A stretch of 64,000 bases of DNA from Dehalococcoidia bacterium (GTDB lineage: Bacteria > Chloroflexota > Dehalococcoidia > Lucifugimonadales > SAR202-VII-2): the NCBI GenBank assembly GCA_965226745.1, contig CBDDDS010000002.1, positions 193,311-257,310 on the forward strand, in the 5' to 3' direction. Positions within the stretch are counted from its first letter, which is position 1; each line of letters begins with the position of its first letter. Under the pieces are notes generated by a model. It was not told the DNA's origin and did no database searches. It saw only the letters and a list, made by a program, of their open reading frames with translations. Shown in pieces: positions 11,710 to 56,343 of the stretch. The position numbers and the translations under genes were made by a program.

Positions 11710-12080
11710 CTTTTCAGTTCCGTTGCGGGGGTTGGAGTCTGGGGGCGTTGCCGCCAGCCCTGTGGGGCCGCTCACCCAGGCCATTGTATCACGGGCGGCG
11801 GCAACGCCTTCACGGGCCGTTCCACTAACCCTGGCCCGGGGGGTTGCAGCGGACTGGAATCCACCGACACAGCGGGGCCATTGTTCCGACGCCCCGAGCA
11901 CCTCGGTGCGCCGCGCCCTGCGTGGGCAGCGCCGCCGGCGGCCTCCCAAGGGCAACAGCGACGGGAGCGAGAGCGGAAGTCCACAACACCTCGACGCGAT
12001 AACAGGTAAGACTTCTGGATGGTGAGCGAGGTCTTGTTACGCCAATCAGCCGGATTTCGGTGGGGGTAGGCACGGAGCCA

Positions 12081-12169
12081 GTACAAAGGCGTAATAGGGC
12101 GTAACGAGCCGTAATGAAGCTGTAAAGGATCTGTAATGGATCTGTAATGGAGCCGTAACGAACCGTAAT
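12081..12169. repeat. phased tandem array, 9 cores (GTAC, then GTAAT/C/A)
   Basis: Core starts are 12081, 12091, 12101, 12111, 12122, 12133, 12144, 12155 and 12165. The intervals are 10,10,10,11,11,11,11,10 bp. Confidence 0.85.
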
Positions 12170-12365
12170 GGAGCGGGATGGCTCCAAGGAGCCTGCCTCA
12201 CAACGGCAGTCGCTCCGGTCCCAGCCTTCCTCGGAGGGTTGTGGGCCTGGGGATGTTCCCCAAGCCCCTGCCACAGGGGGATTCTCTGTGGTTAGCCCCC
12301 AGTACATACGTTATGCGGCAGGCTCCAAGGAAGAGAAGCGGGCCGGGGGCCCACTTCCTGGCGAT

Positions 12366-12394
12366 ACCATAGCACAATAGTTCGGATTTTGCAA
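12366..12394 (-). promoter_or_regulatory. promoter-like motif at the distal end of copy A
   Basis: On the minus strand: TTGCAA, a 17-nt spacer, then tgtgcTATGGT (an extended -10 style TGn). The same arrangement is present in copy B. Confidence 0.35.
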
Positions 12395-12456
12395 TGGGGG
12401 GGGGCGCCTCCTAACCTGCCCTCAAGTACCGAGAGAGAGAGGGGCTTATGGTCGCG

Positions 12457-12555
12457 GGCACCGTTATCCCACCTAGCCCCCTCCAACGTTTGGGGTTACA
12501 GGGGGACACGCTGTTCCCCCGGCGGGGGCTGCGCCCCCTGCACCCTGCTTGGGGG
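12457..12555 (+). repeat. double-hairpin module H2
   Basis: GGGGGACAcgcTGTTCCCCC followed by GGGGGCtgcGCCCCC. It is homologous to 38850..38950 (inverted) and 15819..15925. Confidence 0.75.
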
Positions 12556-12587
12556 ACGGAGGAGGCGCGTCCGAACCCCCTTCCTAG

Positions 12588-15818: not shown

Positions 15819-16020
15819 TTTGTTTTGGCCTGCGCCGCTATCCCGCCCGCTCCGCCCTCCGACGGTTTCCAAAGCAGGGGCACTCGCTGTACCCGCGGCG
15901 GCGGCTGCGCCCCCTGCACCCCGCTCGGCGAGACGAAAGCCCCATCCTTGACGGTGCAGGCGTATTGGTCGTTGTATGGTCCTCCAATGACAGCCCAATT
16001 CGGTGTATTAGCGTGAACAG
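15819..16020 (+). repeat. H2 module plus end module E4
   Basis: TTTGTTTTGGCCTGCGCCGCTATCCCGCCC...GCTGCGCCCCCTGCAC, then ...CAATTCGGTGTATTAGCGTGAACAG. The E4 part is the inverted homologue of 35435..35525. Confidence 0.75.
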
Positions 16021-35434: not shown

Positions 35435-35938
35435 CTGTTCACGCTAATACACCGAATTGCGTTGTCAATGGAGGACTGTACAACGACAAATGCGCCTCCA
35501 CTGTCCATTATGGAGCTTTCGTCCCGCCGCGCGGGGTACAGGGGCGACTCTATCCCTTCCTCCGAGTACGGGGGCAGGTTAGGAAGCGTCTGGACGCGCC
35601 AAGGAGAGAAAGCGACGCCCCTTTCGTTCCTCAAGCGGGGGCCGGAGGTGTCTCTGTCCCTGCCCCCGAGTACGGGGGCAGGCTAGGAAGGGGGTTTCTC
35701 CCCCTGTTCTGGAAAACGTCGGAGGGCGGAGCGGGCGGGATAGCGGCGCAGGCCAAGACAGACCCTCCGCTGAAGGAGGGCGCAGGCGACAACAAGACCA
35801 TCCGTTCAGAGAGGGCCCAGGGCCACCCAAGGTTCCCGCCCGTCTATAGCGCCAACCCGTTTTCATCAACCTTATCTGGCCTGACAAAGCCTCTGTCCTA
35901 CCGGGCCAAGGCCGGTAATCCAACCCCCTAGTGTGAAC
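35435..35938. repeat. 504-bp composite repeat (E4-H2 remnant-H3-H3-H2 part-M6-E5) filling a convergent intergenic gap
   Basis: The left end is CTAGGGCCTGTTCACGCT. The right end, reverse-complemented, is CTAGGGCATGTTCACACT (16/18 identical). The internal modules are homologous to 12457..12642, 14859..15008, 15819..16020 and 38783..39012. Confidence 0.8.
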
Positions 35939-35943
35939 ATGCC

Positions 35944-36918
35944 CTAGACGCGCCGCTGGACGGCGTACTGGGCAAGGCCCGCCATACAGCGGCGGGTCTC
36001 GTTGTCCGGCAGAAGGTCAAGGGCGGCCATAGCCTTGGCGGAGAACTCTCCCGCAACACCGAAGGAGTCTCGCATGATGGGCGACTCGCGGATGAGGGCC
36101 ACAGCCCGTTCCAGGTTGAGGTCGGGCTCGGTCCCCTGGAACAACGCCTCGATGGGATTGTCTTTGGGTTGCCTCTCCAGCAGCAGTATAGCCGGAAGCG
36201 TGAGGGTTCCCTGCAACAGGTCGCTGCCCACGGGCTTGCCAACCTCTTCGGCGTCCCCCTCGATGTCCAGGATGTCGTCCATAACCTGAAAGGCCATGCC
36301 CAAGTTGTACCCGTACTCCCTCATTGCCTGCACCACGTCTTCCCCTGCCCCGCTGAGCACAGCGCCGGACTCGGTGGCGGTCTTGAACAGGGAGGCGGTC
36401 TTGCGATAGGTGCGCTCCAGGTACTGCTCCCGCGTCACTGTCCAGTCCCTGGCCGCCATGTACTCCATCAGCTCGCCGGAGGATAGCTCCATGATGGTCT
36501 CGGCGAAGCGGCGGATGACCCGGACGTTCCCTGTGTCGCACACGCAGGTGGCCGAGAGGGCAAAGACGTAGTCGCCCACGAGAACGGCGACTTTTTCTCC
36601 CCAGAGGCTATGGATTGTCGCCTTGCCCCGCCGCAGAGAAGACCTGTCCACAGTGTCGTCGTGAATCAGGGTGGCGATGTGCAAGAGCTCGACGGCCCGG
36701 GCCATCAGCAGCGGGTTGTGACGGCCCTCGGGGCCGAAATGGGAAGCCAGCATGGTCACCGCCGGCCTGATGACCTTCCCTGGAGTGTCCAGAACGTGGT
36801 CGAGCATGTCCGCCAGGACCGGGTAGTTGGCCTCCACGGCCAGGTCTTTGAGGCCCTGCTTGACCCTTGCCAGATCGTCCAGCACCGGTGCGTAGAGAGA
36901 GAGCAGTTGCGTTGTCAT
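35944..36918 (-). CDS. polyprenyl diphosphate synthase
   Basis: First DDxxD (LIHDDTVD) and second (FQVMDDILD) aspartate-rich motifs are present. Coordinates are from the track. Confidence 0.85.
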   Translation of the reverse strand: MTTQLLSLYAPVLDDLARVKQGLKDLAVEANYPVLADMLDHVLDTPGKVIRPAVTMLASHFGPEGRHNPLLMARAVELLHIATLIHDDTVDRSSLRRGKATIHSLWGEKVAVLVGDYVFALSATCVCDTGNVRVIRRFAETIMELSSGELMEYMAARDWTVTREQYLERTYRKTASLFKTATESGAVLSGAGEDVVQAMREYGYNLGMAFQVMDDILDIEGDAEEVGKPVGSDLLQGTLTLPAILLLERQPKDNPIEALFQGTEPDLNLERAVALIRESPIMRDSFGVAGEFSAKAMAALDLLPDNETRRCMAGLAQYAVQRRV

Positions 36919-38655: not shown

Positions 38656-38782
38656 GGGCCGGTGAAAGCATCAGGCCGCTTATGCTCTCGGGACTCGAGA
38701 CTCTTGCATTACCTGTATCACGCGCAAATGGCTCCATGCTTACCGACGACACCTCGCGTCACCTGGCGGTGTGCGACTCTGT

Positions 38783-38810
38783 CCCTGCCCCCGACTACAG
38801 GGCAGCCTGG
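38783..38810. repeat. REP-like H3 hairpin copy
   Basis: CCCTGCCCCCGACTACAGGGCAGCCTGG. Confidence 0.55.
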
Positions 38811-38849
38811 GAAGCGCCCAGACGCGCCAACGCAAGCTCGCCCCCGTCT

Positions 38850-38950
38850 CCCAAGCGGTGTGCAGGGGGCGCAGCCCCCGCCGGGGGTACAGCGTGTACC
38901 CCTGTACCCAGAAACGTCGGAGGGTGGGCAGGTGGGACAACGGCGCAGGC
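38850..38950 (-). repeat. double-hairpin module H2 (inverted copy)
   Basis: GGGGGCgcaGCCCCC and GGGGTACAgcgTGTACCCC. Colinear with the reverse complement of 12457..12555. Confidence 0.75.
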
Positions 38951-39012
38951 CAAAGCAGACCCTCCGCCGAAGGAGGGCGCAAGCCAAAACAAATCCATCC
39001 GCCCAGGTTATG
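38951..39012 (-). repeat. partial linker module M6
   Basis: CAGACCCTCCgccgaaGGAGGGCGCAAGCC... is homologous to 35757..35800. Confidence 0.6.
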
Positions 39013-39023
39013 CCCCACCCCCC

Positions 39024-39052
39024 TTGCAAAATACGAACTATTGTGCTACGGT
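39024..39052 (+). promoter_or_regulatory. promoter-like motif at the distal end of copy B
   Basis: TTGCAA, a 17-nt spacer, then tgtgcTACGGT. It is orthologous to 12366..12394 and points through the element toward the ABC operon. Confidence 0.35.
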
Positions 39053-39250
39053 ACCCCCATGAAGTGGGCCACCGGCCCGCTTCTCTTTCTCGGAGCCTGC
39101 CGCATATGTTCGGACAGGGGGATTCTCTGTGGACTCCCCCTGTGGCAGGGGCGCTGAGGGAACAACCCAAGGGGCAAGACCCTCCGAGGAAGGCTGGGAC
39201 CGGAGCGAATGCCGTTGTAAAGCACAGGCTCTTTGGAGCCATCCCGCTCC

Positions 39251-39349
39251 GTAACGACTCGTAACGACTCGTAACAACTAGGTAACGGTTCGTAACGGCT
39301 CCGTAACGACTCGTAACAGCTTTGTAACGGCCTGTAACGCCTTTGTAAT
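39251..39349. repeat. phased tandem array, 10 cores (GTAAC x9, GTAAT x1 on the + strand)
   Basis: Core starts are 39251, 39261, 39271, 39282, 39292, 39303, 39313, 39324, 39334 and 39345. The intervals are 10,10,11,10,11,10,11,10,11 bp. Confidence 0.85.
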
Positions 39350-39515
39350 GGCTCCGTGCCTGCAAACCCCGAAATCTGGCTGACAAGCGTTACAAAGCCT
39401 CGCTCACCGTCCGGAAGTCTTACCTGTTGTCACATGGAGGTGCTATAGATTACCGCTCCCGTTCCCGCCGCTTTAGCCCTTGGTGCGCCCACCGGCTCTC
39501 GCCTGCTCTGCGCTC

Positions 39516-43820: not shown

Positions 43821-44377
43821 TCGGAGCCGCCGTCCGGCCTGATCAGGAACAGGGCCTGGCCGTATTCCACGAATTGGGCGTTCTGCACCAGGATCTGCTC
43901 GATGACGCCGTTGACGCCCGCACTGATGCTGTTGAACACCTTCATGACCTCAATGAGGCCCACCGTGGCGTCCTCATCCACCCTTGCGCCCACCTCGGTG
44001 AACGGAGGAGCGCTGGGTTCAGGCGCAGCGTAGAACGTCCCCACCATTGGGGCGTGGACGGGCACGAGCCCCTCGGTGGAGGCCGGGGGAGCGGGCGCGG
44101 CCGGCTCAGGGGCCGCGGCCGGAGCAGGCGCGGCGACCGGAGCGGGCGCGGCGGCCGGCTCGGAAGCGGCAGCCGGAGCTGGCTCAGGGGTCGCAGCCGC
44201 CACCGCAGGAGCGGGCGCGGCGGCAGCGGCGGCAACAATGGCCGGGGCCATGCTCAGGTCGATGTCGCCGCGGCTGACGGTCAGGTTCAAGTCGCCCATG
44301 CGCAACTGGAAGTAATCGAAGCTGGACTTGTCGATCAGGTCGAGGATTTGAATGATGTCTTCTTCGGTGAGGTCCAT
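43817..44377 (-). CDS. accB: biotin carboxyl carrier protein with a long Ala/Pro linker
   Basis: The C-terminal biotinyl domain has IEVMKV (the biotinyl-Lys motif). A ~70-aa AP-rich linker precedes it. There is a 4-nt overlap with accC. Confidence 0.85.
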   Translation of the reverse strand: MDLTEEDIIQILDLIDKSSFDYFQLRMGDLNLTVSRGDIDLSMAPAIVAAAAAAPAPAVAAATPEPAPAAASEPAAAPAPVAAPAPAAAPEPAAPAPPASTEGLVPVHAPMVGTFYAAPEPSAPPFTEVGARVDEDATVGLIEVMKVFNSISAGVNGVIEQILVQNAQFVEYGQALFLIRPDGGSE

Positions 44378-56190: not shown

Positions 56191-56343
56191 ATTCCTACCT
56201 CCCGTGGAGCGAAGCCCCACCCTTCCGGTTAAGCAAATTCGTTTAGACAGTCATCGGGTCAGCGATAACCGTTTGATTGTTTGTTGGCGTTGTGTAGCTA
56301 TTTGATTGTTTGTCGACGCACGAAAGCCGTTAAACCCGGGGAC

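Follow-up and report, generated by a model that had tools for sequence, protein, structure and literature searches.

Why would a Dehalococcoidia genome carry, between its genes, rows of one short sequence repeated at the pitch of the double helix? The question is raised by a 64,000-nucleotide stretch of contig CBDDDS010000002.1 (assembly GCA_965226745.1; hereafter the window), in which two arrays, A and B, present five-base cores resembling GTAAC at intervals of 10 or 11 bp. An initial annotation, made from the letters of the sequence, proposed that such an array may be a protein-loading or curved-DNA site. Our analysis allows us to say with high confidence that both arrays form the variable, tandemly repeated part of a new interspersed element, which bears a promoter and is confined to one Dehalococcoidia lineage, where it is present at no fewer than 20 intergenic sites. 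For the array itself we favour the reading that it is an iteron-like docking track on duplex DNA, with protein aligned on one face of the helix, inside a transcribed copy of this element; we give this reading a probability of roughly one in three. Transcription of the element, protein binding and any regulatory consequence of the array are matters that we infer from sequence.

Two helix-phased arrays in the window

Array B holds ten cores, nine of them GTAAC and the last GTAAT, which begin at 39251, 39261, 39271, 39282, 39292, 39303, 39313, 39324, 39334 and 39345. The steps between them run 10, 10, 11, 10, 11, 10, 11, 10 and 11 bp, and the nine intervals together span 94 bp, exactly as first annotated. 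These matches are far above chance: the window has 14 matches to GTAAY-N5/6-GTAAY, every one within array A or B, and shuffled sequence is expected to yield 0.03; a three-core pattern has 5 matches against an expectation of 0.04. Tandem Repeats Finder calls both arrays. The positions first given for array A stand for the cores starting at 12091, 12101, 12111, 12122 (GTAAA), 12133, 12144, 12155 and 12165, but the supposed first core at 12081 proved to be only a degenerate GTACA.

A new interspersed element of a single lineage

Both arrays belong to copies of one element of ~0.4-0.6 kb, which lie in opposite orientation (B on the plus strand, A on the minus strand) and share 83% mean column identity in the alignment. 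The element consists, in order, of a promoter, a 5′ hairpin, a conserved domain of ~190 nt, the array, a 3′ flank with one inverted unit, and a C-rich, G-poor tail (Table 1). In copies A and B the promoter reads TTGCAA-17 bp-TGnTAYGGT, and it is kept in all 24 main-family copies whose promoter region is covered; TTGCAA is found in 22 of the 24, TGTGCTA is invariant, and the -10 is mostly TATAGT. The promoter of the tRNA-Pro gene, the sole tRNA gene of the window, is built alike (TTGAAG-17-gTGcTAATCT). Each copy is predicted to carry a strong sigma-70-type promoter; a generic promoter scan missed that of copy B because its rules require more matches.

A GC-rich stem-loop begins ~3 nt past the predicted transcription start and is followed by UCUUUCUC; its stem is present in all copies, with a loop that varies and, in one copy (L007), a G-C to A-T change. 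The distance from predicted start to array is 187-192 nt in every copy. Behind the array, the single inverted unit of copy B, which we call the anti-unit, is complementary over 11 nt to the unit GCTTTGTAACG. About half of the copies have a 25-nt G-poor, AT-rich stretch (ACAAACTTAACAACATACAATCAAAG) after the array, the others having a different tail, and the excess of C over G in the tail amounts to +11 to +17%. No intrinsic terminator was found at the 3′ end of the element; a terminator-like hairpin stands instead at its 5′ end. This stem-loop and the U-rich run that comes right after the predicted start (39061-39091 and 12335-12357) could be an attenuator or terminator and not merely a protective 5′ hairpin. 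A divergent relative (L011, ~6740-6480, minus strand) has another promoter region and another middle part, but its 5′ hairpin is identical and runs into T8, which makes a perfect intrinsic-terminator signature right after the start; its array consists of five to six copies of GCGACATAGCC with an 11-bp period.

The distribution of the family was assessed with an exact 20-mer from the invariant 29-mer of the conserved domain, searched across 185,579 species representatives. It was found at 18 loci, all in one genome, the complete 3.09-Mb chromosome OZ253584.1 of a Dehalococcoidia metagenome-assembled genome, and a profile search of DNA fetched from this chromosome recovered two further copies, which brings the number there to at least 20. 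These copies are intergenic, lie on both strands and are spread over 0.6-2.9 Mb. Orthologues of copy B were reached in three ENA assemblies via homologues of the adjacent MetRS gene (98% MetRS identity); a genome with an 85% identical MetRS has neither the transporter nor the element at the copy-B locus, and OZ253584.1 has no counterpart of copy B with the 20-mer at the expected distance.

Searches further afield were negative. A metagenome scan with a 19-mer from the 29-mer block gave nine matches, all of them chance matches in unrelated coding sequence, and two matches in non-Dehalococcoidia genomes (L008 and L014) were likewise dismissed as chance. Rfam, applied at the gathering threshold to the whole window and at an E-value threshold to copy B, returned only tRNA-Pro and sub-threshold noise. 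Nothing similar to the element was present among 72,556 plasmids or 50,697 phages, and its 5′ domain is absent from viral contigs. The family has two traits of BOX-like repeats, namely many dispersed intergenic copies in a single lineage and conserved 5′ and 3′ flanks around a variable number (8-13) of internal tandem units.

Both arrays in the window read GTAAC on the plus strand, and the two copies are inverted relative to each other, so that in the orientation of the element B carries GTAAC and A carries (A/G)TTAC. The agreement on the plus strand is a coincidence of two copies, because GTAAC-type elements in OZ253584.1 occur on both strands at neighbouring chromosomal positions; the same distribution rules out a tie between core strand and the direction of replication.

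A constant period and three classes of core

The initial annotation had held that the cores follow the helical repeat, had asked whether unit number varies while the phase is kept, and had noted that arbitrary spacings such as 8, 13 or 15 bp would speak against its proposal. The family bears this out. Among 162 core-to-core intervals in 20 copies, 102 measure 11 bp, 59 measure 10 bp and one measures 9 bp, with a mean of 10.62; thus 161 of 162 are 10 or 11 bp, none of the arbitrary spacings was seen, and the divergent relative also keeps to 11 bp. Intervals in the RCGAC class, described below, are almost strictly 11. All 25 copies contain 8-13 units in an array of 84-135 bp, and even a single locus varies, copy B having 10 units in the window and 8 in the ENA strains (~98% identical), with the 10- and 11-bp steps unchanged.

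In element orientation, the 25 copies fall into three classes by their cores: class 1, GTAAC/GTAAT, with 17 copies including B; class 2, ATTAC/GTTAC/TTTAC, with 3 copies including A; and class 3, GCGAC/ACGAC, with 5 copies. The unit consensus is N1 N2 N3 A4 C5 G6 R7 N8 T9 Y10 (Y11), in which positions 2-3 are TA, TT or CG. Position 3 is uniform within each class, being A in 147/147 cases in class 1, T in 25/25 in class 2 and G in 40/41 in class 3. The view that AT-rich cores are held on one face of the helix accordingly survives in part: the phasing is general, but five copies show GC-rich RCGAC cores at the same period. Given these class 3 cores, AT-richness is not a trait of the family.

Reverse-complementing the class 1 consensus heptamer Y-G-T-A-A-Y-G gives exactly the class 2 consensus heptamer C-R-T-T-A-C-R, degenerate positions included. 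The class 2 spacers (GGTTC, GGCTCC, AGCTTY, GCCTTT and others) nevertheless keep their forward orientation and rough order, and the last class 2 unit is not flipped. Compared unit by unit between classes 1 and 2, the collinearity of spacers is marginal, with permutation p values from 0.007 to 0.39 depending on the pair. An inversion of the whole array as the source of class 2 is rejected, since the spacers match in forward orientation and order and not as reverse complements, with the reservation that collinearity is only marginal. It is likely from the sequences that each class 2 core changed in place; the marginal collinearity test keeps this short of proof. A duplex site whose polarity was flipped would be expected to give just such a reverse complement with mirrored degeneracy, and the relation between the GTAAC and RTTAC cores, as read from sequence, speaks more for recognition as duplex DNA, or by a complementary RNA, than for a protein that binds single-stranded RNA.

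Two coding explanations were set aside. No conserved frame stays open across the array, because the 10- and 11-nt steps shift the frame, and the class 1 sense strand has TAA in all frames. A small leaderless open reading frame (ORF) at the transcription start is not conserved; its length ranges from 15 to 74 aa, its frame changes, and several copies have no ATG.

Turnover of arrays, and whether the repeats are read at all

The flanks of copy A are 94-97% identical to L018, the orthologous locus in OZ253584.1, which marks the window as coming from a close relative of that genome. Measured around the array, both flanks are 96-100% identical and enclose a ~300-bp patch with 52-80% identity, and the array is of class 2 in the window and of class 1 (GTAAC) in L018. 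Because identity drops in this patch between near-identical flanks and the array class differs, we conclude that the array-bearing patch of copy A was exchanged; recombination with another copy is the simplest explanation. Smaller rearrangements occur as well. Three hairpins of the element exist among copies with their loop in either orientation: the hairpin at 39117-39140 (12258-12283 in copy A) has its loop inverted in most other copies and differs even at the copy-B locus of ~98% identical strains, and the other two, GGAGC[catccc]GCTCC and GGGG[aacat]CCCC, are found flipped in L005/L007/L016 and L002b. Loops in both orientations indicate that small hairpin-mediated inversions are a recurrent mutation in the element, and such an inversion offers a possible route from GTAAT to ATTAC.

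These observations bear on a sceptical explanation, which we regard as rather unlikely: that the array is a functionless variable-number tandem repeat within a selfish or structural interspersed repeat, comparable to the boxB modules of pneumococcal BOX, in which the period is the length of the founding unit, uniformity is due to concerted evolution, and the RTTAC class goes back to a single small inversion of the hairpin type, which later spread. The element has many dispersed intergenic copies in one lineage (one of 185,579 species representatives, with no true metagenome match), close strains differ in its presence and in its cassettes, whole units are gained and lost, and its copies are surrounded by mosaics of other REP-like repeats. 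Three other hairpins of the element demonstrably undergo loop inversion, the collinearity of spacers is no more than marginal, and BOX elements are deemed parasitic even though they are expressed. Drift in a functionless repeat is harder to reconcile with other features: all 25 copies hold 8-13 units, with none reduced to one or two and none greatly expanded; a single interval of 162 falls outside 10-11 bp despite complete turnover of the core in three classes; the divergent relative retains an 11-bp array beside a different middle domain; and every copy has kept a strong promoter. We take it as an argument for some constraint that unit number varies so little, that the pitch stays invariant through full core turnover and that the divergent relative has an 11-bp array.

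A proposed docking track on duplex DNA

Under our favoured reading, each 5-7-bp core would be occupied by one copy of a sequence-specific DNA-binding protein. Bound copies would share one orientation and line up along a single face of the helix, allowing cooperative head-to-tail binding on intrinsically curved DNA, and the GTAAC, RTTAC and RCGAC classes would reflect either different binders or a difference in polarity. Because the array lies 190 bp inside the transcription unit, the bound protein would gate read-through from the element promoter into the neighbouring gene, in sense in about half of the copies and in antisense in about half; alternatively, the arrays might merely titrate the protein. 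This reading is supported by the phasing, the kept array size, the uniformity of cores within an array and the single inverted unit in the flank, which we liken to the inverted iterons that flank direct ones in replicons. The arrays alone, moreover, show no special fold as RNA, behaving like shuffled sequence (z -0.65 to +1.1).

Curvature was estimated with a wedge model that uses approximate parameters. At ~10.6 bp per turn it gives arrays of all three classes a net bend of 45-110 degrees per ~95 bp, against a window background of 25 +/- 14; the predicted bend is at or above the 91st percentile of that background for all arrays and above the 96th for 24 of 25. The curvature that the initial annotation had proposed is therefore modelled coherently in all three classes, though any 10.6-bp repeat would give it.

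Viral contigs (IMG/VR) were scanned for three GTAACG cores at 10-11 bp. The scan returned many genuine arrays in phage contigs (among them L098 5977-6060, L083, L130, L097, L064 11789-11950, L058 and L061), each with 4-14 GTAACG cores that point the same way and are 10-12 bp apart. In several of these arrays 11 and 10 bp alternate as in array B. These arrays are in frame (21 nt, or 11 + 10 nt, make 7 codons, giving SNA(S/T)VT-like heptads) inside genes for replisome organisers or DUF1376-DnaT initiators, beside primase-helicase genes, and are presumably origins embedded in the initiator gene. The control cores GATACG and GCGACG produced as many phage arrays as GTAACG, and kinship of the element with phage GTAACG origin arrays is thus unsupported.

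Several considerations weigh against the docking track and should temper its interpretation. Every array is part of a predicted transcription unit, always 187-192 nt behind the start and past a domain with the better fold on its sense strand, which makes a role at the RNA level at least as economical. Uniform cores and a constant period could be inherited through concerted evolution, and the collinearity test is marginal over the whole range of p given above. Curvature is automatic for any ~10.6-bp repeat, the wedge parameters are approximate, and a strict 11.0-bp period loses phase with a 10.5-bp helix across 10 units. The 64-kb window contains no operator-like pairs of the core outside the arrays, the phage arrays are an analogy only because control cores yield as many, and no gene consistently adjoins the element and no binding protein was identified.

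The geometry of the repeats has a further precedent in centromeres and replication origins, and the initial annotation had named a centromere-like site among its options. That the arrays are a plasmid- or phage-type centromere or origin (parC, tubC or ori) with cognate genes seems to us hardly tenable. The repeats do resemble R1 parC and phage origin iterons in being direct and in helical phase (161 of 162 intervals are 10 or 11 bp), and an AT-rich, G-poor stretch lies behind the array in about half of the copies, but the genomic context contradicts the idea: there are at least 20 dispersed chromosomal copies; the genes beside them, named below, include no par, tub or initiator gene; and the plasmid, phage and viral-contig searches described above found nothing similar.

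At the speculative end, the loci might form a distributed, addressable system, in which at least 20 strong-promoter loci carry ~10 identical docking sites each under three orthogonal 'addresses', with cassettes swapped by recombination. RTTAC transcripts could then act as antisense sponges of the more numerous GTAAC transcripts, because the two addresses are exact complements; or the tracks could be satellite origins or decoys that capture the iteron-binding replication initiators of invading phages, whose own arrays have this GTAACG 10/11-bp architecture. We consider this improbable.

A possible role for the array as RNA

The fixed place of the array behind a promoter leads to a possible, if tentative, alternative to the docking track: that the element is a multicopy non-coding RNA gene of ~400-450 nt, whose array is a low-structure segment presenting 8-13 identical short motifs. 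These motifs could offer several docking registers to the 3′ anti-unit of the same transcript, base-pair with RNA from elements of the complementary class (class 1 with class 2), or load a multimeric RNA-binding protein as a sponge or scaffold. The promoter is conserved in all copies and resembles that of tRNA-Pro, a stem-loop stands at the extreme 5′ end, as is typical of stable RNAs, and the length of the domain is fixed at 187-192 nt. The 5′ domain also folds better on the sense strand, with a consensus fold of -61.5 kcal/mol against -43.9 kcal/mol on the antisense strand and single-sequence z scores of -2.7 and -1.5. Variation in its helix CTTTCTCGGAG/CTCCGAGGAAGG consists mostly of C-to-U changes opposite G (14/17 variant cells). 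Every array thus lies downstream of a conserved strong promoter and past a domain whose sense strand has the better fold, and the earlier statement that the array is not primarily an RNA motif can no longer be claimed.

Predicted pairing is in part specific to class. The anti-unit is complementary to the unit over 11 nt in class 1 and 8 nt in copy A, whose tail forms a duplex of -14.6 kcal/mol with its own array, and for class 1 tails the mean pairing energy is -13.5 kcal/mol with arrays of class 1 but -7.3 and -6.3 kcal/mol with arrays of the two remaining classes. A full-length duplex of -53 to -73 kcal/mol (z -6 to -9) is predicted between arrays of class 1 and class 2, and their degenerate positions, Y in class 1 and R in class 2, are compatible with wobble pairing. 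Self-pairing of arrays is seen for class 1 only and is weaker than the class 1/class 2 duplex; classes 2 and 3 do not self-pair. A fold-back hairpin within the array, or avoidance of structure, was considered and gave no signal over the z range reported above. A second 'anti-unit' in the 5′ domain (GCCGTTGT) was also rejected, as its matches, with G-U pairs permitted, are at chance level (~2.5 expected per element by estimate) and unrelated to array class (L013).

The tail contains a CA-rich, G-free motif, ACA(A/T)ACAATCAAA(G/C), that is also present in mRNA leaders, which again is compatible with an RNA function. This motif lies at the 3′ ends of ~12 of 25 elements (for example L020 1682-1695 and L017 1251-1282). 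It further occurs as two tandem copies on the mRNA strand of the atpH-atpA intergenic region (56271-56313, minus strand) and as two more at 40-72 of the window (plus strand), upstream of an ATG; from its sequence and placement it looks like a general leader motif or RNA-binding-protein motif of the organism.

Much also speaks against an RNA function. Transcription is predicted only, Rfam gives no match, and true compensatory change is scant, with 2 of 49 pairs altered on both sides. Class 3 lacks a complementary partner in cis or in trans, its tail pairing with the array at -2.3 kcal/mol without preference for its own class and its duplex having a z of ~0; one copy (L006) has no anti-unit, and the tails of two others (L010, L001) pair weakly. 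A protein that reads single-stranded RNA is not expected to tolerate the reverse complement of its site. The 5′ hairpin and U-run (U8 in the divergent member) may end much of the transcription ahead of the array, and a 10-11-nt period is not known from RNA systems other than the YC-dimer spacing of Rho.

This last parallel defines a separate explanation, in which the array would serve as a Rho-utilisation (rut) site and so bring the transcript to its end, each Rho subunit finding one YC dinucleotide every 10-11 nt. Published estimates for the primary binding site of Rho allow YC dimers with linkers of 9-13 nt, ~9 nt having been derived from a 57-nt footprint. The period of the weakly structured array fits this published spacing, every spacer contains CU or UC, the element has no intrinsic terminator after it, and its 3′ tail is C-rich and G-poor (+11 to +17%). 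The rut-like composition is however that of the tail and not of the array, since in class 1 and class 3 arrays C exceeds G by no more than +2 to +3%. Conservation falls on the cores and not on the pyrimidines, and ~6 sites suffice for Rho. As this idea also leaves the three core classes and their reverse-complement relation unexplained, we judge it very improbable.

Positions and surroundings of the two copies

Copy B sits between the divergent metG and an ABC-transporter operon, and copy A between unrelated genes. Across the family, the genes adjoining copies include MetRS, an ABC transporter, an EVE-like ORF, an aldo-keto reductase and an RDD protein, and no par, tub or initiator gene is among the neighbours (22 copies were checked for initiator-like genes). 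The next downstream gene is co-oriented with the element in about half of the copies and convergent in about half. A role as 5′ leader or riboswitch of the downstream gene is ruled out by this orientation and by the downstream genes being unrelated to one another.

Table 1 Parts of the two element copies and their coordinates in the window
Feature	Position	Strand	Description
Copy B promoter	39024-39052	+	-35 TTGCAA at 39024-39029, 17-bp spacer, extended -10 TGc-TACGGT at 39044-39052
Copy B 5′ hairpin	39061-39091	+	GAAGTGGGCC-ACC-GGCCCGCTTC at 39061-39083, then TCTTTCTC; terminator-like
Copy B conserved 5′ domain	39092-39250	+	Hairpin GGGGG[attctctgtggact]CCCCC at 39117-39140; invariant 29-mer CCCTCCGAGGAAGGCTGGGACCGGAGCGA at 39180-39208
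Array B	39251-39355	+	10 units of 10-11 bp; core plus spacer, e.g. GACTC, GGCTCC, GCCTTT
Copy B 3′ flank	39356-39404	+	GTGCCTGCAAACCCCGAAATCTGGCTGAC, then inverted 'anti-unit' GCGTTACAAAGC at 39387-39398
Copy A promoter	12366-12394	-	-35 TTGCAA at 12394-12389; extended -10 TGc-TATGGT at 12374-12366
Copy A 5′ hairpin	12335-12357	-	GAAGTGGGCC-CCC-GGCCCGCTTC
Copy A conserved 5′ domain	12170-12334	-	29-mer at 12238-12210; nhmmer E = 8e-60
Array A	12080-12169	-	8 units with core ATTAC/GTTAC/TTTAC, plus a last, unflipped unit (GTACT); GTAAT, GTAAC, GTAAA on the plus strand
Copy A 3′ flank	12030-12079	-	Single unit GGCGTAAC at 12043-12036, complementary to unit GTTACGCC
Copy A variable patch	11990-12290	-	~300 bp: variable hairpin, array and 3′ flank; differs from the orthologous OZ253584.1 locus

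Other repeats share these surroundings. A separate REP-like family (…CCCAAGCGGTGTGCAGGGGGCGCAGCCCCCGCCGGGGGTACAG…) adjoins both element copies and also stands alone, at 38774-38970, 35541-35947, 15821-15937 and 12433-12570 and at many loci of OZ253584.1, and the intergenic regions of the genome are mosaics of several repeat families. Tandem Repeats Finder further reports a GC-rich 18-bp tandem repeat (GGAGCGGGCGCGGCGGCC, 5.5 copies) at 44088-44183. One ENA strain (L031, 1142-2683) has an insertion with fragments of ParA-like genes (AAA_31/CbiA/MipZ) ~7 kb from the orthologue of copy B; it is not in L030 and does not adjoin the element.

Significance and relation to known systems

If the arrays are read by a partner, the element represents a natural experiment in specificity switching, in which one scaffold has carried three cores, one the mirror image of another, at an invariant pitch of 10-11 bp. 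It would then also provide a handle on a DNA- or RNA-binding system in Dehalococcoidia, for which to our knowledge almost no regulators or non-coding RNAs have been characterised, and the three array classes would serve as baits with built-in specificity controls. Should the arrays not be read, they are a clean case of tandem repeats whose units change in sequence without loss of period or purity. In either case, the element shows hairpin-loop inversion as a recurrent mutation in bacteria. An addressable system or a decoy for phage initiators would, if true, be of a kind so far undescribed. The general reach of these results is limited by the confinement of the element to one uncultured lineage.

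Among known systems, the closest in repeat geometry is parC of plasmid R1, which has two sets of five 11-bp iterons, binds one ParR dimer per iteron and is strongly curved. The arrays resemble it in having about ten 11-bp direct repeats in a single orientation, phased with the helix and, according to our model, curved; the discrete classes of repeat likewise recall the ParR/parC families, which have distinct repeat and protein specificities. R1 parC is however a single plasmid locus that flanks the promoter of its own parMR operon, whereas here at least 20 chromosomal copies without par genes carry the array 190 bp downstream of a promoter, within a conserved and probably transcribed element. 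With the phage origin iterons the arrays share one orientation, a spacing of 10-12 bp, a place in a region that is (or here is predicted to be) transcribed and an A-rich stretch behind; the phage repeats, though, are in frame in Phage_rep_org_N or DUF1376/DnaT-type genes by primase-helicase genes, and those described here are non-coding, multicopy and without an initiator gene.

As a repeat family, the element is comparable to BOX, REP/BIME, Correia and MIRU elements in being lineage-restricted, intergenic, multicopy and modular, with a variable internal tandem module and strong secondary structure. BOX modules are ~45 bp long and BOX elements as a rule have no promoter of their own, unlike the 10-11-bp units, three sharp core classes, narrow range of unit number and conserved strong promoter seen here. 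BOX elements, of structure boxA-(boxB)n-boxC, have been judged parasitic and are expressed with neighbouring genes.

If considered as RNA, the element resembles sponge or scaffold RNAs (CsrB/RsmZ and CrcZ) and the TRAP-binding trp leader, in that a non-coding transcript, here a predicted one, presents many short motifs and is encoded by paralogous genes within a genome. The motifs of those systems are GGA in loops, CA-rich, or (G/U)AG every 5-6 nt, and they are constant among paralogues at irregular or other spacings, whereas the motif described here varies, even to its complement, at a fixed pitch of 10-11 nt. Operators of the OmpR/PhoB family, finally, are direct repeats whose 6-7-bp core recurs every 10-11 bp and whose proteins bind head to tail along a single helix face, and our arrays are similar to them in repeating a short core directly at this distance. 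Such operators usually have 2-6 repeats upstream of or overlapping the promoter that they regulate, while the arrays of this family place 8-13 repeats inside a dispersed element.

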